A stretch of 64,000 nt of DNA from a virus. The stretch is taken from the UHGV virus genome UHGV-0200554. One strand, 5' to 3'. The position numbers and the translations under genes were made by a program. The notes under the pieces are model-generated. The model had not been told where the DNA came from. It searched no databases and was given only the letters and a program-made list of their open reading frames with translations. Of the stretch, positions 1 to 13,060 are shown in pieces; position 1 is the first letter of the stretch, and each line of letters starts with the position of its first letter.

Positions 1-59
1 GGTTGACCCGCCAATCTCCCCTCCACAACTCTCCCAGTAATTTCCTTAAGTACTCGATC

Positions 60-230
60 TGTTTTTCAAAATCGAAATCGGATTCTGAAAATCTCGACAG
101 CTTTTCTCCTCGGTTCTCGATAGGTTTTTTATTTTCGATTTTGGATTCTGGATCTCGGTCTGGTTCTGGCTAGGCCTGCGCCTGAGGAACGAAAGCACTT
201 TTTTATTTTTGAAAGTGGATTTTGAATTTC
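60..230. repeat. Short-unit direct repeat tract (reiterated TCGAT / GATTCTGG units)
   Basis: Visible reiteration of aatcg, attctg(g), ctcg units over ~170 bp; ORF on minus strand here has no RBS. Confidence 0.3.
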
Positions 231-299
231 TATATAGAAAAAATTTACCCCCTACCATTTTTGGTAGATAGTCACGGTACGTAATTAGCCTGCTAACTA

Positions 300-500
300 A
301 ATTTTAGATAGTTTCATGAGTGATTATCACCGTTACTATAAATTGCCGTAACTATAAATCACCGTGCGTTACTATTTTAATTTCACCATGCAACTATAAA
401 TCACGGGCCGTTATTATTTATATAGAAAACTATTACTAACCGTGCGTTATTACCTCAATTTGCTTAGGTTACTATTAATCACCGTAAGTAACTATTTTTT
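300..500. repeat. Iteron cluster A: about 5 copies of AATCACCGTG..(A/T)ACTAT motif
   Basis: Copies near 325, 357, 399, 439, 477; related copies at 13831-13868. Confidence 0.5.
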
Positions 501-539
501 AAATGATAATCATTCTCAAAATATATTGCGTGCATCCCC

Positions 540-860
540 GGTGATTGTCTCCCGGCCCCTGGTGCCCCGGCTTGATTATATAATAACAGATCCGGCCCCC
601 ATGTCAACAGCTTTTTTAGAAAAATATTAGTTACAACATCCTGGCGCCACCTGGCAGGGCCATCATGACCATGATCCGGTCCGGCGCTTGCGCCCTGGTC
701 CATCCTCCGCACATTAGTTACAGCATTCCAACGACCGATCCCCGATAGTCTGCAACCTGGCGGGGCCGCCTGGTCCACTGGACCGCCTCCCCTGGTCCGG
801 TGGGGAGTCCGGCTTGCAATTCAAAATGTGATCTGTGTCAACCTTTCACCATGTAGCTAT
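540..860. other. GC-rich island with clustered CCTGG motifs
   Basis: Seven CCTGG within ~250 bp in an otherwise AT-rich genome; overlapping ORFs lack RBS. Confidence 0.35.
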
Positions 861-887
861 TGATCAGGTTACGGCCTAGTGTATTCT
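860..887 (+). promoter_or_regulatory. Putative sigma70 promoter (TTGATC / TATTCT)
   Basis: -35 ttgatc, -10 tattct; -10 and leader closely resemble promoter at 6496-6523. Confidence 0.4.
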
Positions 888-955
888 ATAGGTGAAGGGA
901 AACAAAGGGGAAACGGAAAGCAAAACACCAGGCCGCAAGGCAGGAGGAAAATAAA

Positions 956-1132
956 ATGAAAGGCATGGTTAACAACAACAACGTAAAAGAGAGGGAAATT
1001 ATTGTTAATGGTCGTGAGATTGACAATAAACGCCGGAAAGCTATGCGTGATGCCCTGGTCAACTGGTTGGATTATGAAAAAATGATGGTAATGGCAGCGG
1101 GTGCCGCAGCTGGTGAATTTAACCACAGATAA
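956..1132 (+). CDS. hypothetical protein (58 aa)
   Basis: ATG preceded by caggaggaaaataaa RBS; below the 60-aa ORF-track cutoff. Confidence 0.45.
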   Translation: MKGMVNNNNVKEREIIVNGREIDNKRRKAMRDALVNWLDYEKMMVMAAGAAAGEFNHR

Positions 1133-1148
1133 CCACAGGGGGGCAAAG

Positions 1149-1343
1149 GTGTTAGCTTATAATCTTCCAGGCCGTCGCCGTACGGTTGCCGACCAGGTAA
1201 CGGCAAAGGCAGACGTAACAATCAACAACGGGCAGGGCCTTTACAAGTTTAAACGGGGGAACAGCTATACGATCCAGTTTCTTAACCGTTGTGCTTTAAC
1301 ACCTGGTCAGATCAACCATTGGTTTAAAGCTAAAAAATTTTAA
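1149..1343 (+). CDS. hypothetical protein (about 64 aa, GTG start)
   Basis: ORF 1101..1343 trimmed to GTG after G-rich RBS; weak support. Confidence 0.3.
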   Translation: MLAYNLPGRRRTVADQVTAKADVTINNGQGLYKFKRGNSYTIQFLNRCALTPGQINHWFKAKKF

Positions 1344-1351
1344 AAAATTAG

Positions 1352-1380
1352 TTGACACCAGAAAGAAATAAAGTATTATA
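1352..1380 (+). promoter_or_regulatory. sigma70 promoter with upstream A-tract
   Basis: TTGACA, 16-17 bp spacer, TATTAT; A-rich UP-like tract upstream. Confidence 0.65.
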
Positions 1381-1428
1381 GATAGTGAAAGCAGTACACA
1401 AGGTTAACAAAATATAAGGAGTAACATC

Positions 1429-1830
1429 ATGAGCGCTTTTAACACTGATTTCGATTTCTCTGGTCTGGAAGAAGTTCGCGATCTTCGTAACTGCCGCCGC
1501 GAAAACGGTTTTTATAAATCTCTGGACCTGGTGGCACTGGACCACAAAATGGACCTGGAAGAAGTAGCAACGATTCGTTTCTACCAGTCACCGCGCGGTA
1601 ACACTGTTTACTGTGTAGTATGGGTACATGAAGCAGGGCACGAATTTTATGCCACTGCTGGCGGGAAAGCTGGTGGCTATGGTTACGATAAAGAGGAGGC
1701 CGCATTACGGGAAGCTATCGAGGCGATGGGTGTAAAAGCTGGCGATTATGCTCACCCTGAAAAATTTTTAATCCAGCTTGCTCGCTACTTCGGATATGAA
1801 AAAGCTAAAGTGATTGAAGCACACGCATAA
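1429..1830 (+). CDS. hypothetical protein (133 aa)
   Basis: RBS aaggag 8 nt upstream of ATG; promoter at 1352. Confidence 0.7.
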   Translation: MSAFNTDFDFSGLEEVRDLRNCRRENGFYKSLDLVALDHKMDLEEVATIRFYQSPRGNTVYCVVWVHEAGHEFYATAGGKAGGYGYDKEEAALREAIEAMGVKAGDYAHPEKFLIQLARYFGYEKAKVIEAHA

Positions 1831-1836
1831 GCTGCC

Positions 1837-1871
1837 TTTTAGATGGCCCCCTGGTGGGGCCATTGATAAAG
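1837..1871 (+). promoter_or_regulatory. Conserved palindromic intergenic element (TTTTAGATGGCC..GGCCAT..ATAAAG family)
   Basis: 8-bp perfect stem ATGGCCCC/GGGGCCAT; same module recurs at 3855, 4488, 4929, 7538. Confidence 0.45.
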
Positions 1872-1907
1872 GTAACTTGGGGCAACAATAACCGAGAGAA
1901 AGAAAAT

Positions 1908-2342
1908 ATGAAACGTTTACCACGCTGGATCCGCTTTATTAATAAACTTGCCGCAGATGAAAAAATCCAGGCTATGCATAAAGATAACCGCGAACGCCGT
2001 GCTGCCTTACGAGATTATCGCCGCATGTTGGCAAAGTTAGCCAATAAAAATGGCGTTCTTAAACCGTTCCGCAAAGTGATCCACCTGGTCGCTATGGGAG
2101 CGCCTAAGGTGGCAAACGTTCCAAACGTCCATAAGATTGATGACCGCGACGTTGTAAGAGATATTGATAAAGATTTTTCTCCGAAGGCCATCAATCAGCG
2201 GATCAACAGCTGCAAAAATAAGAAAGATCTTGATAATTTGTTAGATAGCCTCGACGCTTTAGGGTGTGATTATGATTTCTTAGATGACAAGATTAATAAA
2301 AAATACCGCGAATTGGCTGGTTATCGCGTCAACCGGATTTAA
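1908..2342 (+). CDS. hypothetical protein (144 aa)
   Basis: Track ORF 1854..2342 trimmed to ATG after gagagaaag RBS. Confidence 0.6.
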   Translation: MKRLPRWIRFINKLAADEKIQAMHKDNRERRAALRDYRRMLAKLANKNGVLKPFRKVIHLVAMGAPKVANVPNVHKIDDRDVVRDIDKDFSPKAINQRINSCKNKKDLDNLLDSLDALGCDYDFLDDKINKKYRELAGYRVNRI

Positions 2343-2629
2343 CATATCAGAATAGTTGGCCCTGGTGGATCCGATCCGTGCACGGTCCAGGGTATGCCCG
2401 AAAACCTCCCCCATTACGCCGCTACGCCTGTTTTGAAGGTGTGGCGGTGTAGTTGCACCTCTTTGCAAAACACCTCGCCATAATACTTATTTGATGCCTT
2501 ATTTTCGATACGCTCAAATAATGACCAATCAATCGCCCCCACCATGATTTTTTTCTTGCAATCCCCCAATGTATGAATACAATAACAATTGAAGGCAGTA
2601 TTAACAAAAACACAAGAAGGGGAAACAAA

Positions 2630-2800
2630 ATGGATAAAATCTATTACGTTGTTTATCGCGGCCTTAATGTTGCCTGGTACGACAATTTGGCTGAGGCAAT
2701 GGAAGAGGCGCACGACCGTTACGACCTGGGGCGTAACCGCCTTGAAGTGGTGGATAGCGACGGCGTGATCTATTGGTGTAGTGAGGATCTGGAATACTGA
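2630..2800 (+). CDS. hypothetical protein (56 aa)
   Basis: Track ORF 2573..2800 trimmed to internal ATG after aggggaaac RBS. Confidence 0.45.
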   Translation: MDKIYYVVYRGLNVAWYDNLAEAMEEAHDRYDLGRNRLEVVDSDGVIYWCSEDLEY

Positions 2801-2811
2801 AAAAAAAATAG

Positions 2812-2842
2812 TTGACACGACCGTTTGAAAGTGTAGTATATA
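2812..2842 (+). promoter_or_regulatory. sigma70 promoter with upstream A-tract
   Basis: TTGACA and gtagtatat extended -10-like region; A9 tract upstream. Confidence 0.6.
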
Positions 2843-2895
2843 AACCGAAGGGGAAAGAAATTTCCCAGAGGTAAAAAACAAAGAGGATAAAAATC

Positions 2896-3171
2896 ATGGC
2901 TATCATCGAAAAAGTAAACGTTCCAGCCACTTATAATAAAGGTTATAACGGTTGGAAAAATTACAATCAGTGGAACGTTGCACTGTGGATCAATAACGAC
3001 GAAAGTTTATACTTCTTTGCCCTGGGCTTGATTAATGAGTGTGGCAATAAAGACGCGGCAGCTGATTTGATGGTTTACCGCTTGAAAGAAGAGGGGATCA
3101 CTCATACGCCTGATGGGGTGCCTTACAATAAAACTAACATCCGCGCCGCTATGGTCGGAATGCCGCACTGA
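2896..3171 (+). CDS. hypothetical protein (91 aa)
   Basis: RBS aagaggat upstream of ATG. Confidence 0.7.
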   Translation: MAIIEKVNVPATYNKGYNGWKNYNQWNVALWINNDESLYFFALGLINECGNKDAAADLMVYRLKEEGITHTPDGVPYNKTNIRAAMVGMPH

Positions 3172-3247
3172 TAGCCGCCTTACCCTGGGGCCGTGGCAGC
3201 GCCCCATGAATAAGGTTACTACCCCCACAATAACAGGAGGTAACATT

Positions 3248-3358
3248 ATGAACATTATCGCGGCAATCATTGTAGGCTATGCCCTCTTTTTGCTGGGCTT
3301 GCACCTGGCGGCAGTTATCAAAGGCCTGATCGATTTCTTTAAAAAAGATGAAAAATAG
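3248..3358 (+). CDS. small hydrophobic membrane peptide (36 aa)
   Basis: RBS aggagg then ATG; single predicted TM (IIAAIIVGYALFLLGLHLAAVI). Confidence 0.4.
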   Translation: MNIIAAIIVGYALFLLGLHLAAVIKGLIDFFKKDEK

Positions 3359-3360
3359 TG

Positions 3361-3388
3361 TTGACAGGTGAGAGAAAATAAATATACT
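3361..3388 (+). promoter_or_regulatory. sigma70 promoter
   Basis: TTGACA, 16 bp spacer, TATACT. Confidence 0.65.
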
Positions 3389-3438
3389 TAACCATGAAAG
3401 CAGTAAACGAGATTAATAAAACACAGGAGAAAAAGATC

Positions 3439-3849
3439 ATGAAAACTACTTTCCGTAATGCAAATGGTTTAACTGCATTCGCTTTAGCTTGTGGATATGT
3501 TCAAATGGTAGAGGGGCGGGATCGTGAAATGGTGGATCTGTTTAAAGCCCACGGTTGCTACCATGTTCGCGCTTTTAATGCTGATGGCGAGCGGCAAGCA
3601 TGGTTTAGTGTGCCATCTTTAACTGATGCCCGTCGCCATTGGAAAGAACTGGTAAAACTGATTTTCGGTGCACGCATTGCACAAGTGAAACGCTGCAAAC
3701 GTTACGAAGTGCGCCACGTCCTGGACCTGAGAGGGGAGGCAGTTTACCAGGTTATCTATCGCTACGATGGGGAGTCTCGCCACGTCGGCTACTGTGAAAA
3801 CGTGGACGCGGCATGGATGATTGCACACCGCGACTATGTAAGCCTATAG
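3439..3849 (+). CDS. hypothetical protein (136 aa)
   Basis: Track ORF 3394..3849 trimmed to ATG after caggag RBS. Confidence 0.6.
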   Translation: MKTTFRNANGLTAFALACGYVQMVEGRDREMVDLFKAHGCYHVRAFNADGERQAWFSVPSLTDARRHWKELVKLIFGARIAQVKRCKRYEVRHVLDLRGEAVYQVIYRYDGESRHVGYCENVDAAWMIAHRDYVSL

Positions 3850-3854
3850 GTTAT

Positions 3855-3895
3855 TTTTCGGTGGCCTGGGTATTGACACCGGGCCATCTATAAAG
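3855..3895 (+). promoter_or_regulatory. Palindromic intergenic element with embedded TTGACA
   Basis: GGCC..TTGACA..GGCCATCTATAAAG; same family as 1837, 4488, 4929, 7538. Confidence 0.45.
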
Positions 3896-3933
3896 TAACC
3901 TAAAGATCCACACAACGAAGGGGGGGAACAATC

Positions 3934-4026
3934 ATGAAAAACTATTCTCACTATTTGATCCGTCGTGATGTTATGATTATGGCCCTGGGCTACCTGGTTA
4001 TGTTTGCTTTTCGTGTAATGCTGTAA
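3934..4026 (+). CDS. small hydrophobic peptide (30 aa)
   Basis: G-rich RBS then ATG; hydrophobic core; not in ORF track (short). Confidence 0.35.
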   Translation: MKNYSHYLIRRDVMIMALGYLVMFAFRVML

Positions 4027-4044
4027 AATAAATTAAAAAATTAG

Positions 4045-4072
4045 TTGACACAGTAGCAAAAATAAGTAAACT
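4045..4072 (+). promoter_or_regulatory. sigma70 promoter with upstream A-tract
   Basis: TTGACA, 16 bp spacer, TAAACT. Confidence 0.6.
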
Positions 4073-4117
4073 TAAAACTGAAAGAAGTAATTAGTAAACC
4101 ACAAAGAGGAAAACATC

Positions 4118-4477
4118 ATGAAACGCATCAATAAGGCTATGGCTAACGCAATCCGTGCTTATGTAGTTGACAGCTTAAACTTTGACGACATGGAACACGA
4201 CAACGACGTTGAGGAACTGAAAGCACGCTTTGAAGCTGAGCATTTTGACGGCTATTATATCCGTCGCTTTAACGGCAACCGTGTAAAAGCAATGGCCGAC
4301 TGGTTAGCAGGACTGCCGAGCGGTGTAGACATTGACTTCTGTAATGATGACATTTTAAACCGCTTGCGTGAGTTCGGAATCATTGACGAAAAAACTAAAG
4401 AAGACACTAAAGATCGCTACATTGACGAATGGTTTGAACTGATGGCGCGGTTTTATGTGGAACTAGCATACAAATAA
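4118..4477 (+). CDS. hypothetical protein (119 aa)
   Basis: RBS aagagga upstream of ATG. Confidence 0.7.
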   Translation: MKRINKAMANAIRAYVVDSLNFDDMEHDNDVEELKARFEAEHFDGYYIRRFNGNRVKAMADWLAGLPSGVDIDFCNDDILNRLREFGIIDEKTKEDTKDRYIDEWFELMARFYVELAYK

Positions 4478-4487
4478 AATAGCTTGC

Positions 4488-4545
4488 TTTTAGATGGCCT
4501 CGAAAAAAAAAAATAGTTGACACGGGGCCATCGATAAAGTAAACT
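4488..4545 (+). promoter_or_regulatory. Palindromic element split by promoter (TTGACA at 4517, TAAACT at 4540)
   Basis: ATGGCCTCG and CGGGGCCAT arms flank A11 tract and TTGACA; 17-bp spacer to TAAACT. Confidence 0.55.
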
Positions 4546-4583
4546 AACACACAGTAAGAAGTAACAACAAAGGAGAAAACATT

Positions 4584-4922
4584 ATGAACGCTAACATTGA
4601 ACTGATTGCACGTCGTGCCGCCCTGGTTGCAGCTATCGAACAATTGAACAATAAAATTGAAAACTTTGAAATTGATCCAGATGACTACGAAAACGACTAC
4701 GATGATTTACTAGACGAAGGCGGTGCGGTAGTGGTAGGCGGTTGCGAATTTCTCCCGTCTAGAATCCTCCGCGAACTGGATCCGATTGCTTATCGTTGCG
4801 GCCTGAATGATTATATAGACAACATTGATGTAAGCGATGACGCAAACTATTGTGATTTGTGTGACGATCTGGCTGACCTTGAGGCAGAACTAGGGGAAGT
4901 CGAGGAAGCGCTACGTAACTAA
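4584..4922 (+). CDS. highly acidic small protein (112 aa), DNA-mimic candidate
   Basis: RBS aaaggag; very high Asp/Glu content over most of the protein, few basic residues. Confidence 0.7.
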   Translation: MNANIELIARRAALVAAIEQLNNKIENFEIDPDDYENDYDDLLDEGGAVVVGGCEFLPSRILRELDPIAYRCGLNDYIDNIDVSDDANYCDLCDDLADLEAELGEVEEALRN

Positions 4923-4928
4923 GTTGCC

Positions 4929-4964
4929 TTTTAGATGGCCTCCCTGGCGGGGCCATCCATAAAG
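4929..4964 (+). promoter_or_regulatory. Conserved palindromic intergenic element
   Basis: TTTTAGATGGCCTCC..GGGGCCATCCATAAAG followed by GATAAT. Confidence 0.45.
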
Positions 4965-5001
4965 ATAATTTAGTGTAACCACAATAAAAAGGAGTTACGC
5001 A

Positions 5002-5250
5002 ATGGCAAAATTAATTAACTTTGCAGCGGTGGACCTGGTAAAAGCTGATTGGTATTATAGCAATGGTCGCGCCGTTTGGTGGCGTGAAGGGGGTGCCGAG
5101 GGCAAAGTAAAAGCGCGTATGATTAAAGGTTACCATTTAGATCGCCCTGTAATTCGTATCAATGGGAAGCTGGTCGCTTTCATGCATATCAAAGCGGTTG
5201 ACGATATTGAAAAAATTTTGAACGTCAACTATTTTAAAATGTTAGGGTGA
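5002..5250 (+). CDS. hypothetical protein (82 aa)
   Basis: RBS aaaggag upstream of ATG. Confidence 0.65.
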   Translation: MAKLINFAAVDLVKADWYYSNGRAVWWREGGAEGKVKARMIKGYHLDRPVIRINGKLVAFMHIKAVDDIEKILNVNYFKMLG

Positions 5251-5339
5251 CATGCCAGGCGGGGGCCGTTAGTCCGGCCCCCTCTATCCAACCAGGAGGA
5301 GGTGACACTATGCCCAGTTAACAACAGAGAGGAAAATAT

Positions 5340-5678
5340 ATGGACCTCATGACGTGCATACTCGCATTTATTGCAATAGGTGTAGTCTGGAACAAAGTAA
5401 AAAACCAGAGTTATTACGCCAGATGCCAGGCTTTTCGGGTGAATCCGTGGGATATTGATCCGGGTGCTGATTATGTTATCAAGTACCAGGACCGACACGG
5501 CAAACAATATGTAACGCCGTCGCCGATACCGGCCTATTGCTTGCTGGAATACACAGACAAGATAAAACAGGCAGGTTTTTTAATTGTTGACCTGTGGGGC
5601 CGCCACGGTGACGCGAAAAAATTTATTAAAGCAGTGGCTGCAAATATTGCAGCACAAGAAAACGACGATGAAGAGTAA
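5340..5678 (+). CDS. hypothetical membrane-anchored protein (112 aa)
   Basis: RBS agagagg; N-terminal hydrophobic segment. Confidence 0.65.
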   Translation: MDLMTCILAFIAIGVVWNKVKNQSYYARCQAFRVNPWDIDPGADYVIKYQDRHGKQYVTPSPIPAYCLLEYTDKIKQAGFLIVDLWGRHGDAKKFIKAVAANIAAQENDDEE

Positions 5679-5692
5679 CAGGAGCGCCGATT

Positions 5693-5914
5693 ATGAACAT
5701 GGTAAACTTTGAAAAAATTACTAAGCGCAATCATTTATCTGACGAACTACCGGAACGCCGCCAGCGTAACAACAAGCTGAATAAACCGCGTCGATTTGGT
5801 AAACTGTGGCGCAACTATTACGACCGTAATTTACGCCGCCTGTTACTTGAACGTGAACGCCAACAAATGAGATACGCAGCACGGCGGGAACGGATGAAAG
5901 CAGACGAAATTTAA
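5693..5914 (+). CDS. arginine-rich small protein (73 aa)
   Basis: RBS ggag; highly basic, Arg-rich, possibly nucleic-acid binding. Confidence 0.6.
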   Translation: MNMVNFEKITKRNHLSDELPERRQRNNKLNKPRRFGKLWRNYYDRNLRRLLLERERQQMRYAARRERMKADEI

Positions 5915-5919
5915 CCGAT

Positions 5920-5950
5920 AGGCCCCCAGGTGGGGGCCTTTCTTCATTTG
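5920..5950 (+). terminator. Intrinsic terminator
   Basis: AGGCCCCC-aggt-GGGGGCCT hairpin followed by T-rich tract. Confidence 0.6.
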
Positions 5951-6154
5951 TAACATAGCGCAATCAATTTTAAGGCCCTTAAAACGCCCTACAACGCAAA
6001 GAAGCCTAAAGGTGAACAATTGCATTACCCGCCCCCAATTAGTAATTTGTGATCAAGATCTCACAAAAATTAATAGGTAAAAACCTTATTTACTTCTTAT
6101 AGGATCTGCATACCATTTTAATTGAAAGAAGAAACACAGCAGGAGGAAAATAAA

Positions 6155-6364
6155 ATGGTCTACTGTGATTATGCCAATGATGCACTGGGCCGCTATGAGA
6201 AAGGCCGTTATTATGACCTGAGCGAAATAATTGATAACGAGGATTATTACATCGATAAGAATGATGATCATCTAGTCGTTATCCATCGCGTAGTCGATCC
6301 GATGTGCTTCGTGGACGTTAGCCCGATTGTGGCACGCTTTGAAATTATGGTATTGGAGGCTTGA
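6155..6364 (+). CDS. hypothetical protein (69 aa)
   Basis: Track ORF 6122..6364 trimmed to ATG after caggaggaaaataaa RBS. Confidence 0.6.
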   Translation: MVYCDYANDALGRYEKGRYYDLSEIIDNEDYYIDKNDDHLVVIHRVVDPMCFVDVSPIVARFEIMVLEA

Positions 6365-6366
6365 TT

Positions 6367-6474
6367 ATGTTACTTGAAATGCTGATGAATCCGATTATTT
6401 CTATGGGCCTGATCTTTGTAGTTGTCTGCCTGGTTGTTGGTTTTATCTTGAGCAATATGCGGAAGTAAAAATTT
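6367..6474 (+). CDS. small hydrophobic peptide (35 aa)
   Basis: ATG 2 nt after upstream stop; hydrophobic core. Confidence 0.35.
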
Positions 6475-6495
6475 TTAAAAAGCTATGAAAAAGTG

Positions 6496-6523
6496 TTGAC
6501 ACGGCCCCCCGGTTTGGTATTCT
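6496..6523 (+). promoter_or_regulatory. Putative sigma70 promoter
   Basis: TTGACA, 16 bp spacer, TATTCT; followed by purine-rich leader. Confidence 0.5.
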
Positions 6524-6670
6524 ATAGCTGAAAGGAAAAGAAAGGGAACAAGAAGGAAAGTTCCGGGAGCGGGAAAAGAAGGGTAAGGGAAAAGCCTTGA
6601 AGCATAGCTAACCGAAGGACCGAGGGAGCCGGGAGCGGCCCTAAAAGATACTCAAAGAAGTAAAAAGAAG

Positions 6671-6698
6671 TTGACAAGGTAACACAAAGCAGTAAAAT
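6671..6698 (+). promoter_or_regulatory. sigma70 promoter
   Basis: TTGACA, 16 bp spacer, TAAAAT. Confidence 0.6.
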
Positions 6699-6777
6699 AA
6701 AGTTGAAAGGGAAGGATGCAGGGAGCAACAAGGACCGGATAAACCGGGGGGAGCTGAAAGAAAACGAGGAAAATAAA

Positions 6778-6864
6778 ATGAAAGACTACTACAAAGCAAA
6801 CGAATATGAAAGGGTAGCAGATTTCATTAAAGAAATGTTAAAAGGTCTGAATAATAAAAAATGA
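6778..6864 (+). CDS. small protein (28 aa)
   Basis: ATG after acgaggaaaataaa RBS; below ORF-track cutoff. Confidence 0.3.
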   Translation: MKDYYKANEYERVADFIKEMLKGLNNKK

Positions 6865-6872
6865 GGTGGGGT

Positions 6873-6986
6873 ATGAAAAACAAGCAAGAAAGGCCCGAAG
6901 ATGACAAATTTACATGGCGTGAGCTTTTAAACATCTGGTACATCATTTACGGGCAACATTATAAACACAGAGGAGGGAGGTTATAA
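6873..6986 (+). CDS. small protein (37 aa)
   Basis: ATG after gaggtgggg RBS; followed by GGAGGGAGG..CCTCCC hairpin. Confidence 0.3.
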   Translation: MKNKQERPEDDKFTWRELLNIWYIIYGQHYKHRGGRL

Positions 6987-7033
6987 ACCTCCCACCACAA
7001 AGAAAGAAACAACAACCAAGCGAGGAAAATAAA

Positions 7034-7261
7034 ATGAGCAACGTTATCAAGTTCCCCATGAATCGTGTAAAACCATCTAAAGGTGTGGTTAATTTCGATA
7101 ATAAGGTTTACCGCATGGCCTGGATCGTTAGAAACAGCGACAATAAGGGCGATATCTGGGTAGAGGCATTCAGGCGGGAGGTTGATGCTATTTTTTCAAG
7201 AAGTGTAAGGGGAGGCCGGATCATTAGAGGATTTTTCAAAGCGGCACCGGAAGAGGTTTAA
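7034..7261 (+). CDS. hypothetical protein (75 aa)
   Basis: RBS gcgaggaaaataaa upstream of ATG. Confidence 0.6.
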   Translation: MSNVIKFPMNRVKPSKGVVNFDNKVYRMAWIVRNSDNKGDIWVEAFRREVDAIFSRSVRGGRIIRGFFKAAPEEV

Positions 7262-7266
7262 AAAGG

Positions 7267-7294
7267 TTGACAAATCATAAAAAACAAGTAGACT
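7267..7294 (+). promoter_or_regulatory. Putative sigma70 promoter
   Basis: TTGACA then TAGACT at 16 bp. Confidence 0.45.
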
Positions 7295-7336
7295 GATAAT
7301 CGAAAGCAGTAAACAATTTAAAAGGAGAACATAATC

Positions 7337-7531
7337 ATGAAACACATCAACATCGTAAACCTGAAAAAAGTTTGCAAAATTGCAATTTTTGTGGAAGGTG
7401 TCGAGGCTTATCGTTGCGACTACGAAGATTATAAAGATGCGTTAGCTTTCCTCCTGGACGTGGCACACCACAACAATCTAGACTATGAAGCCATCGAGGC
7501 AGCCGAAAAAGTTATGGCAATTGCCGCATGA
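7337..7531 (+). CDS. hypothetical protein (64 aa)
   Basis: RBS aaaggag upstream of ATG. Confidence 0.65.
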   Translation: MKHINIVNLKKVCKIAIFVEGVEAYRCDYEDYKDALAFLLDVAHHNNLDYEAIEAAEKVMAIAA

Positions 7532-7537
7532 GTTAGC

Positions 7538-7578
7538 TTTTAGATGGTCCACGATGCGAAAGTGGATCATCAATAAAG
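7538..7578 (+). promoter_or_regulatory. Conserved palindromic intergenic element
   Basis: TTTTAGATGGTCCAC..GTGGATCATCAATAAAG, degenerate copy of the family. Confidence 0.4.
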
Positions 7579-7612
7579 AAAACTCAACCACGAAGCAAGA
7601 AGGAGAAACATC

Positions 7613-7843
7613 ATGGACCTTATGACAGCTGTTGCAACATACGACTATAAAAACTTTTTTGATGTAGTCATGATTAAAAAACCAGCTAACGCCCGGATGC
7701 CTGCAAATGGTTACGGTAAAAAATTACCGACTAACTGGATGATCAATTTCGAGGGCCGTATGCGCCGCGTCTATGTTGATATCTGTGGCAATTCTGGACA
7801 CAGGTACATCATGGTTAAAGGCCGTAAATTTACTATCATGTAA
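7613..7843 (+). CDS. hypothetical protein (76 aa)
   Basis: RBS gaaggag upstream of ATG. Confidence 0.65.
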   Translation: MDLMTAVATYDYKNFFDVVMIKKPANARMPANGYGKKLPTNWMINFEGRMRRVYVDICGNSGHRYIMVKGRKFTIM

Positions 7844-7904
7844 CACGATTTCAACCAGGGCCGGAAGTCCGGCCCTATCATCAACCAACAAAGGGGATCA
7901 AAAA

Positions 7905-8024
7905 ATGAAAGACAAGCCTCGACCTTGCAGCGATACAATTTACCATCTGATAGCATGGTGTGAGATCCTGGCAATTGAAGCCCTTATGGGTGTTGGCATT
8001 TACTTTATAGCGATCTATAATTAA
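7905..8024 (+). CDS. small hydrophobic peptide (39 aa)
   Basis: Track ORF 7773..8024 trimmed to ATG after aaagggga RBS; C-terminal TM. Confidence 0.4.
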   Translation: MKDKPRPCSDTIYHLIAWCEILAIEALMGVGIYFIAIYN

Positions 8025-8057
8025 CGCGAAAGGAAATAGCCATGAGGAATAAAAGCA

Positions 8058-8414
8058 ATGAGAATCATCGACCTGTTAAACCGTATGCCGGACGTCAACG
8101 AGATGGCCCCCGATATGAACGAAATTGATCGAGAAGCTGCCGAAAAAGCGGCCCGTAAAATTAAATGCCGTGGGGCCGCTATCGGTGCGGTGCTTTTTGG
8201 CCTTGCTTATGCTCATATTGATTTGGTCCATAACATTTTCCACAATGCACCGATCAAAATCGTGTTAGCCTGGATTGTCTGCTACGTGTGCGGTGAGTAC
8301 ATTTACCCGGTTGCCAAAAAATTGGCCCCGTGGGCCGTCCTGGGTGCGGTGATCTATTATGTTGCGCCTGTGATTATTGCAATCGTAAAACATTACACAG
8401 CGCAACAAATGTAA
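8058..8414 (+). CDS. hypothetical membrane protein (118 aa)
   Basis: RBS aggaat; two or more hydrophobic segments. Confidence 0.65.
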   Translation: MRIIDLLNRMPDVNEMAPDMNEIDREAAEKAARKIKCRGAAIGAVLFGLAYAHIDLVHNIFHNAPIKIVLAWIVCYVCGEYIYPVAKKLAPWAVLGAVIYYVAPVIIAIVKHYTAQQM

Positions 8415-8424
8415 GAGATTCTAA

Positions 8425-8450
8425 GGGCCGCAAATAAGCGGCCTTTTTTA
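8425..8450 (+). terminator. Intrinsic terminator
   Basis: GGGCCGC-aaataa-GCGGCC hairpin followed by TTTTTTA. Confidence 0.75.
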
Positions 8451-8753
8451 TGGCCCCGCCTCCTGTGTTTAAAATCCTTCCTGTAAGCCCCGCCATTGAG
8501 ATTTACCCGCAAGATAAGCAAGTGTAAAGCCCCACCATTCCAGGCCGTTGCAGGCCCTGCCAGGTGCCTAAAAATCGATTTATACGCTTCCACTATTGCC
8601 AACCTTCAAAGCGATCCAGACTTAAAAGTGTTGCCCCTGCAAAATGAGAATAGTTATCATCTTATAAATTTTTCTTGCAATGTGGTCTGTTGTGTGTATA
8701 CTTATTCTTGAAAGGGGAATACCTCCCCCACCAACAACAAAGGAGTTAAAATT

Positions 8754-9035
8754 ATGTTCCCTAACCTATTCCCTGGTGCGGTTATCAATTTTGAAGCCCG
8801 TTATTTGCAAGCTGGTATGATTATCATTCGAAATGATCGCCCATTGAAATTAACTAGGGTAGAATACAATGAAGGCCAGGCCCCTGGCGAGGAAACTGTA
8901 GACTACTTCTTCATGTATGCAGATGAGGATCCAAATGATAACACTGGCGAATGGTTTAACTTCTTCCTGCCGGACGAAATGATTAAAGTGCTTTATTATC
9001 CTGGTAACCGTTATCCGCTTCATGCGCTTTTCTAA
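8754..9035 (+). CDS. hypothetical protein (93 aa)
   Basis: RBS aaaggag upstream of ATG. Confidence 0.65.
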   Translation: MFPNLFPGAVINFEARYLQAGMIIIRNDRPLKLTRVEYNEGQAPGEETVDYFFMYADEDPNDNTGEWFNFFLPDEMIKVLYYPGNRYPLHALF

Positions 9036-9050
9036 AAAAAATCTTCATAA

Positions 9051-9076
9051 AGGCTTGCAATGTGCAGGCCTTTTTC
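9051..9076 (+). terminator. Putative intrinsic terminator
   Basis: AGGCTTGCA..GCAGGCCT imperfect hairpin followed by TTTTT. Confidence 0.5.
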
Positions 9077-9130
9077 CTACTATAAAGGTGAAGAAAGAAG
9101 TAAGGCCAACAGTTAGAGGAGTAACAAATT

Positions 9131-9340
9131 ATGGGCATGGGAAGAGATAAACGTAAAGCGGCGAAAGCAAGAAAAGCGGCAGCAAAGGCCGCACCTGTTA
9201 AAGCTGTACCGTACCACGTCAATATAAACAACCTGGAAGTAATGAACAATCCGGCCCCTATGGAAGAATTTAACGATGCGGATTGGAGGGCGGTAGCAAG
9301 AATGGTTATCCGGCTTGAACGCCTTGCCAGGGAAGAGTAA
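9131..9340 (+). CDS. hypothetical basic protein (69 aa)
   Basis: RBS agaggag; Lys/Ala-rich N-terminus. Confidence 0.6.
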   Translation: MGMGRDKRKAAKARKAAAKAAPVKAVPYHVNINNLEVMNNPAPMEEFNDADWRAVARMVIRLERLAREE

Positions 9341-9361
9341 AAAAGTTAGAAAAAAAAACGG

Positions 9362-9390
9362 TTGACACAGAATAGAGAAGGCCTATAATT
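9362..9390 (+). promoter_or_regulatory. sigma70 promoter (consensus)
   Basis: TTGACA, 17 bp spacer, TATAAT. Confidence 0.75.
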
Positions 9391-9439
9391 AAAGTGAAAG
9401 AAGTAATTAGAAACAACAAAATAAGAAGAGGTAAGTATC

Positions 9440-9706
9440 ATGAAAATGGTAGACGTTAAAGGCATCAAGAACGTTAAAATGCAAAAAAATACTCCCGCAA
9501 ACGTTCTTAAAAAAGCCCTGAGCATCCTAGAAGCACACAACGCAAAAACGGTGCATCCTGTTAAATTAAATTGCGGTTATGGCTATAAATACAATATTAA
9601 TAAAGACTGGAGGCTGTTAAACCGTGATGGCGAATTTAAAGATTGGTTAATTGTTGAGCACTTGGAGTATAATCGTCTGGTTGGCGTAAAAGGCGCTCAT
9701 AAATAA
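9440..9706 (+). CDS. hypothetical protein (88 aa)
   Basis: RBS aagaagagg upstream of ATG. Confidence 0.65.
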   Translation: MKMVDVKGIKNVKMQKNTPANVLKKALSILEAHNAKTVHPVKLNCGYGYKYNINKDWRLLNRDGEFKDWLIVEHLEYNRLVGVKGAHK

Positions 9707-9751
9707 CGCCAGAACATGAAAACACAGCATAAAACACTAAGAGGGAACGCC

Positions 9752-9931
9752 ATGATTAGAGAATCCCAAATACTTTACGAAAATGGCAACTACTGGATCC
9801 TTGAGGCTAAACCGGGGGTTTACCAGGTGATGGTAAAAGGTTTAACGCATTCGACTTGCGATAGCGCCTACGCAGATTTTGATCTAGCATTGGCCCGGTG
9901 TGAGTACCTGGCACGAAGAGAAAACGCATAA
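9752..9931 (+). CDS. hypothetical protein (59 aa)
   Basis: Track ORF 9716..9931 trimmed to ATG after agaggga RBS. Confidence 0.45.
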   Translation: MIRESQILYENGNYWILEAKPGVYQVMVKGLTHSTCDSAYADFDLALARCEYLARRENA

Positions 9932-9986
9932 AAGAAAGGCCCCACCCAGGGGCCTTAACTTTATGAAAAAAAATCTGAAAAAATAG

Positions 9987-10014
9987 TTGACACCTTGCTG
10001 GGATAGTATATTAT
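9987..10014 (+). promoter_or_regulatory. sigma70 promoter with upstream A-tract
   Basis: TTGACA, 16 bp spacer, TATTAT. Confidence 0.6.
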
Positions 10015-10057
10015 TAAATTGAAAGCAGTACTAAACCACTTGAAAGAGGAAAAGATC

Positions 10058-10540
10058 ATGAAAGCGTTCAAATATGTTTTAGCGGCCCTGGCGATGGTTA
10101 TCGGTGTAAATGTGAATGCTGGCGGTTTTAGAGTCGAGGCCCCCGAGCATATCAATCCGGTTTATGTGAAAGAAATTTTAATGAATTGCGCCGGGGAAAT
10201 GGTTGCACCTGATGCGGTGTTTAATCCTGATGCACCGATCAACGTTAAAAAAGGTTGGCTGGCTAAAGCTGACAAAGAATGTAAAACATTGGTAAATAAT
10301 GTTATCGTTCACGCCCTGATTGTTGACCTGATTATCAAGAAAGGCCCTGAAAATATGAAGGGCATGGACGAAGAGGAGTTTAAAGAGTATTTCTATAACG
10401 AAGAAATGAAAGTGGAGAATTACCATTTTGATGAAAACGGTTATGAAGATGTTAAAGCTAACTTGAAAGATGTTTACAATCTTGCGCTTGAAAATCCTAA
10501 AGCCGCCCATGCTATCAAGGTGCGAATGATGGGAAAATAA
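10058..10540 (+). CDS. secreted/periplasmic protein with signal peptide (160 aa)
   Basis: Track ORF trimmed to ATG after aagagga RBS; N-terminal signal-peptide-like segment. Confidence 0.6.
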   Translation: MKAFKYVLAALAMVIGVNVNAGGFRVEAPEHINPVYVKEILMNCAGEMVAPDAVFNPDAPINVKKGWLAKADKECKTLVNNVIVHALIVDLIIKKGPENMKGMDEEEFKEYFYNEEMKVENYHFDENGYEDVKANLKDVYNLALENPKAAHAIKVRMMGK

Positions 10541-10545
10541 AAGTA

Positions 10546-10573
10546 TTGACAAGCTGCCAGGTTGTTGTAAGAT
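10546..10573 (+). promoter_or_regulatory. Putative sigma70 promoter
   Basis: TTGACA then TAAGAT at 16 bp. Confidence 0.45.
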
Positions 10574-10617
10574 GTAAATAAAAGAAGTACCACACCAAAT
10601 AAGAGGAGTACCAAATC

Positions 10618-10797
10618 ATGAAACGGAATATTAAAAAGGTCAACAACCTGGTAAATGTTGCAATGCGTGAACGTGAAAATGCTCTAGACCTTCTCCCCGA
10701 TGACGATATCGATGAGGAGGTGGCAGAAAAAGCCGTCTACCTGGCTAAAAACCTTGAGAATTTCGACATGCACGAACTGTTAAAAATGGCCCTGTAA
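10618..10797 (+). CDS. hypothetical protein (59 aa)
   Basis: RBS aagaggag then ATG; below ORF-track cutoff. Confidence 0.5.
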   Translation: MKRNIKKVNNLVNVAMRERENALDLLPDDDIDEEVAEKAVYLAKNLENFDMHELLKMAL

Positions 10798-10849
10798 GGC
10801 GGGGCCGATACCCCGCCAGCTATCCACCAAATCGAAAGGAGTGATTATT

Positions 10850-11146
10850 ATGTTTATCCCTGCAAACGGTTTATTCTTCTTTGACGGTATGATCGACAAT
10901 GCCGCCGTAATGGTCGAGATTGCCAACAAAAACGGCGGCCAGGTGATGGCATTCCGTGATGACCATGACCATGATCGATGGTTAGAGGTCGAGATCCAAA
11001 AAGTGGACGAAAAAAGCTATCTAGTGATCTACCGCCTCTTTGAAGACGGTCGCCAGGAGGCAGGGGATCAGGCCATCTTCCCGCGCTACATGGTCCAGGG
11101 TGCGATCATCGCTTTCGTGAACGATGTTTTCCCTGTTGAAGAATAA
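10850..11146 (+). CDS. hypothetical protein (98 aa)
   Basis: RBS aaaggag; ATG at 10850 preferred over GTG at 10841. Confidence 0.6.
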   Translation: MFIPANGLFFFDGMIDNAAVMVEIANKNGGQVMAFRDDHDHDRWLEVEIQKVDEKSYLVIYRLFEDGRQEAGDQAIFPRYMVQGAIIAFVNDVFPVEE

Positions 11147-11216
11147 CCGACTATACTCGAAAGCTGAAAATCAAAAAATAGCCCATCTAATCGCCACACA
11201 GGCGGGATAAACCTGG

Positions 11217-11249
11217 GGAGGCCTTGCAAGTGCATAGCCTCCTTTTTCA
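11217..11249 (+). terminator. Intrinsic terminator
   Basis: GGAGGC..GCCTCC hairpin followed by TTTTT. Confidence 0.6.
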
Positions 11250-11353
11250 TGCCCTTAAAACGCTTCCTGTTGCGTTTCCTGCGATACGGTCCAGGCCGTG
11301 ACGGCGGTCCGGTCCGGTGTAGGGTGTTCAAATGTTGTAACTAAAAATAATCC

Positions 11354-11381
11354 TTGCACCGATTCACAAATAGGCTATAAT
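11354..11381 (+). promoter_or_regulatory. sigma70 promoter
   Basis: TTGCAC, 16 bp spacer, TATAAT. Confidence 0.6.
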
Positions 11382-11425
11382 AAAAATGAAAGAGGTAATT
11401 ACCTCACATAATAAGGGGCAAAATC

Positions 11426-11683
11426 ATGAAAGGCTGGATTAAAAAGGTGACCGAAAAACGTTTTAACGCCATTTGGGATCTTATTGAAAAGGAAGAAGGT
11501 GCCTCAAGCCGCTACCTCAATAATCTTGAATTTCATTACGTGGAAGCGATGAATGCAGAACATGACCACAAAGGCGGCGCGGATGATTTTGCAAAAAGGT
11601 ACGGTTTTAATAATGCCAACGAGATGATCGAGGCGGTTGTACTCCAGGCAGAAGAAGACTACGCAGAAAGGGCGCTTGGTTAA
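11426..11683 (+). CDS. hypothetical protein (85 aa)
   Basis: RBS aagggg upstream of ATG. Confidence 0.65.
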   Translation: MKGWIKKVTEKRFNAIWDLIEKEEGASSRYLNNLEFHYVEAMNAEHDHKGGADDFAKRYGFNNANEMIEAVVLQAEEDYAERALG

Positions 11684-11726
11684 TACACGGGCCGAAAGGC
11701 CCACCACACAAAGAGGAGTAAAAATT

Positions 11727-11921
11727 ATGGCACTTAAAAAATTAACTGAAAAAACTCGTTGGGATATGATCGACGGGGAAGTCTATATTTTCGCCCGTAA
11801 ACCTGGCGATCAAAAATGGGTAAAAGCGTTCACTTGTCACCCTGCTGTTATTGACCTCATTAAAAGTAAAGGCCTACGTGAAGCAGTGGCACGTAGTCTA
11901 TTAATCCCTTGCAAAGAATAA
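11727..11921 (+). CDS. hypothetical protein (64 aa)
   Basis: Track ORF 11637..11921 trimmed to ATG after aagaggag RBS. Confidence 0.6.
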   Translation: MALKKLTEKTRWDMIDGEVYIFARKPGDQKWVKAFTCHPAVIDLIKSKGLREAVARSLLIPCKE

Positions 11922-11943
11922 TATAACTGACGAAATAATAAGA

Positions 11944-11967
11944 GGCCGCAAATAAGCGGCCTTTTTG
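11944..11967 (+). terminator. Intrinsic terminator (end of rightward small-gene block)
   Basis: GGCCGC-aaataa-GCGGCC hairpin followed by TTTTTGTT; near-identical to 8425 terminator. Confidence 0.75.
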
Positions 11968-12469
11968 TTGTCTGTAGTATAGTGAATCCGGTATTCAAAA
12001 CAGCGGATCATTCCGCGAACGCTATGCGTGATGTGTGCATAAAATAAAATGCCTATAAATTAACCACACCACAAAAAAGCTGTATGTGCATACATAGTTT
12101 TTAAGTTTTTTCAGTTTTCAGCTGTCAAATGTGGGGCATTTTGTGAAGTATCTCACACTTTTCGGCTGATGCACATTTTATATAGCTATGTCAACAACTA
12201 TAAATCTTTATAAAACAGTAAGTTACAAAGTCCATTTTTTGAAAAATCGGGTATAACTATAGGCGCGAAATTCTATTTTTCACGTAGCGTCACGATAAGA
12301 TGTATCTGATAGGTATGTTTTAATTATGCAATATTAATGCATAACCAACATGTGATAAATATTCTCAACAACCCGGCAGATGTATTAAATATGGTGACTA
12401 TTCCACCCCACATTATTTCAGACGGCAACTATTCCGATGTGTGATTAATATACTTTCAGGCGGTGATTA

Positions 12470-12620
12470 TTCTGTATCTCAATAATCTATATAATATAAT
12501 ATTAGTAATATAATTAGATTATGAGATACAAGAAAACATCTAAAATAGTAAAATTACAATTAATGAAAATATATAAATTGCATAAAATAAAATAAGACAA
12601 ATAACAATTTGCGAATGCAA
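12470..12620. other. AT-rich tract (candidate DNA unwinding element)
   Basis: About 150 bp of almost pure A/T (aataatctatataatataatattagtaatataatt...). Confidence 0.4.
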
Positions 12621-13060
12621 TGATCACAATATGCAACGATAACATGGCGCGACCGGAGGGAGCGACATAATAACGCTGAGTGACAATAACACCCCCGTGT
12701 TATTATCCAGCATTATTATCTCGCTAATTTATGATTATCTCATAAATTAACATGTAATAATCCTCAGCGTTATTATGTCCTCCAATAACAATAAAAATTG
12801 TTATGGTAACGCTGAGTTATTACTATGTTAATAAAAGGGCATAAAGCCCGGTACTATGTACCATTAAATAATCTAAAACGATTACGTTTTCTCAGCGTTA
12901 TTGTGTCAAATGTTATGATAACAGTATATAATTATCTTGCTAACTTTCAGTATACATATTCCGCGTAGCGTCATGTGGAGCGTGTAGTAAACCTGTAGCA
13001 AGATAAGAATAACGCTGAGGTATTGTACCGTATGCAACGATAACATGGCGCAACTATAAC
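12621..13060. repeat. Dispersed direct and inverted repeats
   Basis: ATGCAACGATAACATGGCGC at 12631 and 13032; ATAACGCTGAG x3 and its complement x2; TTCCGCGTAGCGTCATG at 12957 and 13555. Confidence 0.6.

Follow-up and report, generated by a model that had tools for sequence, protein, structure and literature searches.

What is the palindromic module that recurs between the early genes of the viral genome UHGV-0200554, and does it act as DNA or as RNA? The window that we analyzed is a 64,000-nucleotide (nt) stretch of this genome, in which a preliminary description had reported five intergenic sites (1837, 3855, 4488, 4929 and 7538) sharing the module. It proposed an operator for coordinated shut-off of early promoters, an RNA processing site or a recombination hotspot for gene-cassette shuffling. 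We found all five sites where they had been placed, on the + strand, and the module is an intercistronic hairpin of 60 to 75 nt, larger than the palindrome first described. We propose, with about equal chances of being right or wrong, that it acts in the sense-strand RNA of early read-through transcripts as an RNase III cutting and stabilizing signal, some of its loops carrying a promoter and its copies serving as joints for cassette exchange.

The window represents the left part of a myovirus that is a distant relative of the rV5-like phages of Escherichia coli (Vequintavirus), to which its conserved genes show 72 to 83% nucleotide identity; megablast-conserved patches lie at 2935-3221 and 5750-5862. 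About 900 bases without genes precede a long run of small + strand genes, and the early block of rV5 is laid out alike. The comparators were three metagenomic contigs, L011 (~89% identity), L007/L010 (~88%) and L004/L006 (~70%), and rV5 was also examined, its 95-138 kb portion being designated L040.

The palindrome TTTTAGATGGCC is exact at 1837, 4488 and 4929; the 7538 site departs from it at one position and the 3855 site at two. Allowing up to two mismatches gave 17 matches, versus 6.3 ± 2.6 in shuffled sequences. An alignment and a covariance model were made from 31 copies, drawn from the window and the three relatives as well as from rV5 and other rV5-like sequences. Applied to the 64 kb of the window, this model scored the five sites at 56 to 70 bits (E values of 6e-11 to 2e-14), recovered one more, diverged copy at 3164-3233 (34 bits, E value of 2e-5), and detected no copy beyond these six. 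All six are on the + strand, which is the gene strand, and lie within 5.8 kb. Scanning the whole window and the relatives thus bore out the recurrence of the module in the early block and added one diverged copy to it.

In every copy, pairing runs outward past the palindrome first described, through a 2 × 3 internal loop, and into a lower stem. The upper stem has 9 to 10 GC-rich base pairs (GAUGGCC../..GGCCAUC) and is capped by an apical loop that varies from 4 to 20 nt. The internal loop, with U followed by A or C on its 5′ side and N-A-U on its 3′ side, is present in 29 of 29 scored copies. The lower stem comprises 11 to 14 AU-rich base pairs. On its 5′ side it starts from the upstream stop codon, which lies inside the stem in five of the six window copies, and its 3′ strand holds ATAAAG and the -10-like TAAACT. 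The rV5 copies have an upper stem of 10 bp and a lower stem of 10 to 13 bp. The five main window copies fold alike, with a folding energy (ΔG) of -24 to -32 kcal/mol and z scores of -3.8 to -6.3, and the folds of their antisense strands are less stable by 1.2 to 10.5 kcal/mol. Each of the six copies begins at a stop codon or within 3 nt of one and lies 37 to 48 nt 5′ of the next ATG on the gene strand. An Rfam scan of window positions 1-13000 gave no relevant match at E ≤ 1.

Three of the main copies, all on the + strand, lack a -35 element. Copy 1 (1825..1883; ΔG -30.1, z -3.75; 56.3 bits) has the upper stem GAUGGCCCC/GGGGCCAUU and a 5-nt loop, with the stop codon UAA (1828-1830) in the lower stem and the next ATG at 1908. 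The 4929 copy (4918..4974; ΔG -25.6, z -4.34; 58.2 bits) has a 6-nt loop, UAA at 4920-4922 in the lower stem and the next ATG at 5002. The arms of these two copies had been described as adjacent and forming an 8-bp stem; nearly adjacent they are, and they do pair, but over 9 bp and with 5 to 6 nt of loop between them. The 7538 copy (7529..7586; ΔG -24.6, z -6.28; 60.8 bits) shows compensatory changes in its upper stem, GAUGGUCCAC/GUGGAUCAUC, with UGA at 7529-7531 in the lower stem and the next ATG at 7613.

The other two main copies, also on the + strand, enclose a TTGACA. In the 4488 copy (4480..4546; ΔG -24.4, z -6.11; 70.2 bits), the 20-nt loop contains an A11 tract (4503-4513) and TTGACA (4517-4522), which is followed after a 17-nt spacer by the -10 sequence TAAACT (4540-4545) in the 3′ strand of the lower stem; the next ATG is at 4584. 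In the 3855 copy (3844..3905; ΔG -32.0, z -5.46; 65.9 bits), TTGACA (3873-3878) lies in the apical part, 17 nt before TAACCT (3896-3901), a -10-like sequence matching at three of six positions; UAG at 3847-3849 falls in the lower stem, and the next ATG is at 3934. An A-tract and a TTGACA flanked by the palindrome arms, as had been claimed for both, are thus both present at 4488, but 3855 has the TTGACA without the A-tract. The diverged sixth copy, or 3176 variant (3172..3221, + strand; 34.3 bits, E value of 2e-5; fold z -0.43), pairs CCUUA..UGGGGC with GCCCCA..UAAGG and has no -35; a stop codon at 3169-3171 precedes it, and the next ATG is at 3248. This variant is also kept 3′ of the homologous gene in rV5_ev168 and in L010.

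Pairing is maintained across the family. In the alignment 90.2% of the cells were paired, against 36 to 52% when the partners were slid by one to three columns, and both sides had changed in 12 of 22 pairs (covariation score 0.35 versus at most 0.10). Scoring 21 pairs in 29 copies gave 491 Watson-Crick, 79 G:U, 18 A:C and 21 other combinations. The upper stem contained 37 G:U and no A:C. These G:U pairs occupy seven positions and arose from both C-to-U and A-to-G changes, which rules out a one-directional mutation bias. Between the window and L011, the 7538 copy displays a clean A:U to G:C swap. As G:U is tolerated and A:C is not, a distinction that is meaningless for duplex DNA, the sense-strand transcript appears to be the form under selection. 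We conclude from these substitution patterns that selection acts on pairing in the sense-strand RNA, with the reservation that the selected form may be single-stranded DNA of the same strand. An RNA-level role of some kind is very probable.

The same data bear on the operator proposal, according to which a dimeric phage protein would bind GATGGCC/GGCCATC and shut off some of the early promoters. An inverted repeat that is conserved in sequence and that flanks a -35 in some copies is what such a protein would use. However, the half-sites are 4 to ~20 nt apart and keep no fixed phase, a -35 is missing from four of the six window copies, the covarying pairs reach 11 to 14 bp further outward, and the tolerance of G:U but not A:C on the sense strand has no meaning for a duplex. 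We regard an operator as extremely unlikely, and coordinated shut-off was not retained as a function of the module.

How, then, are promoters related to the hairpin? In a promoter scan, only the 4488 copy passed (10/12; TTGACA at 4517-4522, 17 nt, TAAACT at 4540-4545), and its loop (A11-TAG-TTGACAC) reproduces exactly the upstream half of the ordinary class-1 early promoters of this phage. The 3855 copy, with its perfect TTGACA and poor -10 (TAACCT), was absent from the promoter-scan list. Inspection by eye of 1837, 3176, 4929 and 7538 showed no -35-like sequence at the correct distance. Three of the four rV5 copies read GATGGCC-TTGACN-CCAGGGCCATC-AATAAAG-TAAACT, with a spacer of 18, and the fourth has no -35. 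Among close relatives, the loop of the 4488 orthologue goes from A11 to A7 to no A-tract, the arms being unchanged. Because the content of the loop varies while the arms stay, the comparison indicates that the hairpin is the constant feature and the promoter an optional insert.

The arrangement of the early block points to read-through as the source of the hairpin RNA. A class-1 promoter at 1352..1379 (+ strand; A-tract, TTGACA, 16 nt, TATTAT), identified by promoter scan and cassette alignment and not itself part of a module, opens a promoter-gene-module-gene unit, and equivalent class-1 promoters are present at 2812-2839, 3361-3388, 4045-4072 and 7267-7294. This layout occurs five times: promoter 1352, gene 1429, module 1837, gene 1908; promoter 2812, gene 2896, module 3176, gene 3248; promoter 3361, gene 3439, module 3855, gene 3934; promoter 4045, gene 4118, module 4488, gene 4584, module 4929, gene 5002; and promoter 7267, gene 7337, module 7538, gene 7613. 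In rV5, promoters and modules alternate likewise around open reading frames (ORFs) 194-190. Given this layout, genes 3′ of promoter-less modules would depend on read-through. The start predicted for a nested promoter lies beyond the hairpin, and therefore only read-through RNA would carry the structure. The ordinary early promoters (1352, 2812, 3361, 4045, 7267, 9362 and 9987) are themselves conserved cassettes of ~95 nt, alike from the UP element through the start codon: A-tract, TAGTTGACAC, 16 nt, TAnnnT, 6 nt, TGAAAGCAGTA, AAGGAG, ATCATG.

A hairpin placed right after stop codons, with a -35 in the stem-loop and a -10 just 3′ of it, has the layout of a promoter-coupled terminator (preprint 10.64898/2026.08.19.745784). 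The module could accordingly be an attenuator or a terminator-plus-promoter cassette, as has been suggested for such terminators and for the promoter-early stem-loops (PeSLs) of T4-type phages: read-through would be halted or lowered by the hairpin and transcription resumed from the nested promoter, so that each gene would be insulated. The -35 in three of the four rV5 copies fits this possibility, as does the stem-loop of PeSL 211/210, one of the PeSL cassettes of T4-type phages, which was reported to lower lacZ expression like a strong terminator (PMC2839356) and which in RB49 has UAUACU after the hairpin. However, the module hairpin is followed by N-A-U-A-A-A-G in 31 of 31 copies and never by a U-tract, a terminator scan listed no module copy, and the same phage and rV5 end operons with ordinary 8- to 9-bp hairpins and U-tracts. 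Moreover, the AU-rich lower stem of 11 to 14 bp, maintained by covariation, would be superfluous for a terminator, and in the four of six window copies without a promoter termination would silence the downstream gene. An intrinsic terminator is unlikely, and we grant the cassette as a whole a minor share of the probability. In sum, the terminator and operator readings are weak because there is no U-tract, the spacing of the arms varies, and a single window copy passes the promoter scan. True U-tract terminators occur in the window at 5920-5939 and 8423-8446; GC-rich hairpins without a U-tract, outside the module family, are found just 3′ of stop codons at 5261-5282 and 7857-7876.

By analogy, RNase III-type processing appears to be the best-fitting mechanism, at a likelihood that we place slightly below even. 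Substrates of this enzyme have about two helical turns, and internal loops confine the cut to a single strand, so that a protective 3′ hairpin remains (PMC1540722); E. coli RNase III prefers intergenic regions within transcripts (PMC6212723). The five main copies provide a helix of about two turns (~20 bp; 9 to 10 bp in the upper stem and 11 to 14 bp in the lower stem), interrupted, as in T7-type signals, by an asymmetric internal loop found in 29 of 29 scored copies, and all six separate co-transcribed genes, at the end of the first of the two. For comparison, we folded five T7 regions that we take to be R0.3, R0.5, R1, R1.1 and R1.3; the T7 record used does not annotate these sites. All five had an upper stem of ~10 bp rich in GC, an asymmetric internal loop whose 3′ side carries A-U, and a lower stem placed where the upstream gene ends, directly following its stop codon or including it. 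R0.5, R1 and R1.3 are placed like the module, and the lower stem of R0.5 includes the stop codon of gene 0.4. The RNA processing site is therefore the best supported of the three functions first suggested: size, interrupted helix and position after the stop codon match T7, while cleavage is presumed by analogy.

Two finer comparisons were made. The AAAG that follows the internal loop lies 37 to 42 nt from the next ATG in promoter-less copies, and in ordinary promoter cassettes, by a visual count on the alignment, 35 to 43 nt separate the start of the conserved GAAAGCAGTA leader from the ATG, a similarity that is a weak hint of processing. We also scored the RNase III box rules (PMC1540722), numbering 11 positions from the loop. 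The rV5-type copies have A-U at the proximal-box position from which G-C is barred (PMC1540722), and over all scored copies position 2 of this box is A-U in 23 of 29. In rV5-type copies, U:A and U:G stand next to the loop-closing pair, like the distal box of R1.1 (PMC1540722).

Several observations weigh against the RNase III proposal. Outside the rV5-type copies the box rules fit only in part: the distal UA/UG pair is missing from 1837, 7538 and others, proximal-box position 2 is G:U in five copies, and the pair adjoining the internal loop is G-C. Some copies have mismatches in the lower stem, including A:C, and the fold of the 3176 variant is no better than that of shuffled sequences. Applied to the T7 early region, the covariance model gave matches at R1.1, R0.3 and R1 that were suggestive by position but not significant (E values of 0.55 to 10), and any long hairpin would attract such matches. 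The RB49 PeSL hairpin, which is followed by UAUACU and not by a run of U's, has been reported to cut downstream expression strongly (PMC2839356). Literature searches on Vequintavirus transcriptomics turned up no usable transcript or cleavage data for rV5-like phages. Finally, GAUGG/CCAUC and the loop bases are strictly invariant, beyond the known needs of RNase III, and a different, sequence-specific partner could be responsible.

Such a partner would make the module an RNA target of another factor, be it a nuclease or RNA-binding protein encoded by the phage or RNase E at the AU-rich flanks; alternatively, the hairpin would couple translation by bringing the upstream stop codon close to the downstream leader. 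The near invariance of GAUGG/CCAUC and the loop bases, in a helix whose other pairs covary, suggests base-specific recognition, and the base of the hairpin brings the stop codon to a point 37 to 42 nt before the next ATG. A high-scoring copy in an apparently unrelated viral contig (L003, see below) would be expected of a signal read by a shared factor. The invariance may, however, reflect only the recent common descent of the copies, a candidate protein is lacking, and sequence alone does not separate another factor from RNase III. We consider a factor of this kind doubtful, with a small chance of being the right answer.

Processing by RNase III would proceed as follows. Early polycistronic RNA would read through from the upstream promoter and carry the hairpin; host RNase III would cut it at the internal loop, leaving the hairpin as a protective 3′ end of the upstream message and freeing the downstream message. 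The apical loop is free to vary, and in 4488, more weakly in 3855, and in three of four rV5 copies it holds a sigma-70 -35, sometimes with an A-tract, that would work with the TAAACT -10 in the 3′ strand of the lower stem to start transcripts just beyond the hairpin. Near-identical over 30 to 40 nt at exact gene borders, the copies could then serve as joints for gene-cassette exchange. A more ambitious version is that one DNA is read twice, in RNA as an RNase III-type hairpin that would part and stabilize the early messages and, in DNA, as a loop slot that gains or loses a complete sigma-70 upstream half (A-tract and -35), so that the cutting of read-through RNA and the start of new transcripts would share the same 70 nt, in a unit portable with its downstream gene and perhaps even into unrelated phages (L003). 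We put this forward tentatively, as possible but not probable.

Comparison with the relatives showed that homology breaks at modules. Between the window and both L011 and L007, it spans gene 1429 and module 1837 and is lost at 1892-1898, close to the ribosome-binding site. After this module an additional 1.19 kb in L011 contains three extra genes; L007 has an additional 0.72 kb, a gene that precedes a variant module whose frame is the same but whose upper stem is different. This variant (L007 2140-2180) has the upper stem AAGCCCCC/GGGGGGCTT around TTGACA, its TTTTT .. TATAAAG-TATGAT frame and lower stem being unchanged, which suggests that the hairpin design can be rebuilt with a different stem sequence. 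The slot before promoter 2812 is occupied by gene 2630 in the window and by a homologue of gene 5002 in L010; in L006 it contains a gene 2630 homologue, a module right after its stop codon, and a gene 5002 homologue. Gene 5002 of the window likewise follows a module, 4929. The joint in L010 falls in a short shared string, AAGGCAGT. The proposed role in cassette shuffling is thus upheld by breaks at modules and by a module-plus-gene unit in a different slot of a relative; as to mechanism, we infer from these alignments that recombination occurs at the module itself.

Could recombination be all that the module serves? If it were a selfish or neutral repeat whose sole role is to provide a homology patch, the hairpin would be incidental. 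The ends of homology at modules, the module-plus-gene unit in another slot and the 30 to 40 nt of near-identity among copies are all compatible with such a repeat. In contrast, the compensatory changes and the one-sided tolerance of G:U denote selection for pairing in one strand, and the orientation and the position relative to stop codons are fixed. A repeat with no other role is very improbable.

The module is a regular component of rV5-like phages. The complete rV5 genome contains four copies according to the covariance model, all in the early block on the gene-sense strand, with 72 to 77 bits in the sense reading versus 25 to 31 bits in the antisense reading. A blastn search with one rV5 copy matched 121 phage records, all of the Vequintavirus type, at about three places each. 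Many Vequintavirus GenBank records annotate a hypothetical protein across the module (e.g., PP925834.1, and NC_011041.1 at 115190-115245); these calls are probably spurious. No module copy was found in E. coli chromosomes, the rV5 genome paper, including its promoter and terminator tables, does not list the module sites, and a full-text literature search for the motif strings returned no relevant paper.

A loose pattern scan of viral contigs yielded 36 loci. The L003 locus (4961-5032), in a 107-kb viral contig, is a 59.6-bit copy located directly 3′ of a stop codon. With tblastx, neither the window nor the whole of rV5 showed similarity to this locus; PHROGs were uninformative, and the contig is apparently unrelated. 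The other 23 non-rV5 loci tested all failed the covariance model and are chance matches. L018 (37 bits) and L031 (23.5 bits) are doubtful.

Other features of the region were recorded along the way. The gene-free stretch contains, at window positions 50-224 and 320-500, a 38-nt repeat present three times and a 31-nt repeat, GTAACTATAAATCACCGTGCGTTACTATTTT, present four times with a spacing of 36 to 42 nt; the 31-nt repeats look like iterons. Its counterpart in rV5 is a region without coding sequences at 104.0-106.6 kb. Long purine-rich untranslated stretches with GAAAGG and GGGAGC repeats are found at 880-955 and 6525-6777, 3′ of promoters sharing GTATTCTATAG; the second, of ~250 nt, is flanked by two promoters.

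The rV5-like phages are widely used in biocontrol of E. coli and are represented in the BASEL collection; to our knowledge, nothing is known of the expression of their ~70 small early genes. If the module is an RNase III signal, they would be the second group of coliphages, after the T7 relatives, in which early messages are shaped by host RNase III, and rnc hosts or stem mutants would offer a simple handle on early gene expression. The nested-promoter copies form a natural series for studying how a promoter and an RNA processing site share sequence.

Among known systems, the early RNase III signals of T7 resemble the module in that they recur between early genes that a coliphage has transcribed together by the host polymerase. 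The T7 record places the minor E. coli promoters B and C at these hairpins or within them, and rV5-type copies match R1.1 both in the U:G/U:A under the loop and in the A-U at proximal-box position 2. In contrast, there is no significant similarity in sequence or by the model (best E value of 0.55), the internal loop of the module is smaller (2 × 3), and its apical loop can expand to 20 nt and hold a full -35 and an A-tract. Promoter-coupled intrinsic terminators (10.64898/2026.08.19.745784) also lie between tandem genes, with a stem-loop that doubles as the -35 region and a -10 just downstream, but they have a T-tract between hairpin and -10 where the module has its invariant N-A-T-A-A-A-G, and the stem of the module is far longer.

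The PeSLs are conserved intergenic cassettes joining a sigma-70 promoter and a stem-loop. In RB49, the phage in which they were defined, a short hairpin of 7 to 8 bp (GGGGATC..GATCCCC) sits inside the spacer; in 8 of 10 intergenic spacers examined, it was flanked by a -35 and a -10 that we could recognize by eye. The module hairpin, in contrast, has at least 20 bp, wraps around the -35 when there is one, and usually has none; of the window copies, only 4488 passed the scan for the sigma-70 early promoter that characterizes each PeSL. Searches with the covariance model gave 0 matches in 35 kb of the RB49 plastic region, and blastn with the module retrieved records of the Vequintavirus type only and no T4-like record. 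Because the model found nothing in those 35 kb, the module is not a member of the PeSL family as judged by sequence, though it is PeSL-like at the genome level. The rV5 early ORFs 167, 205, 206, 209 and 210 (L040) are annotated as similar to RB49 orphan genes, which hints at exchange of early genes between the rV5 and RB49 groups. Like the PeSLs, the module is concentrated among small orphan early genes of a plastic region and coincides with joints of insertion, deletion and replacement between related genomes, the exchange behavior shown by the PeSL cassettes of RB49/phi1, PST and nt-1 (PMC2839356, PMC4122927). Module-bounded gene units would thus extend to phages outside the T4 type the concept of regulatory cassettes that act as shuffling joints.

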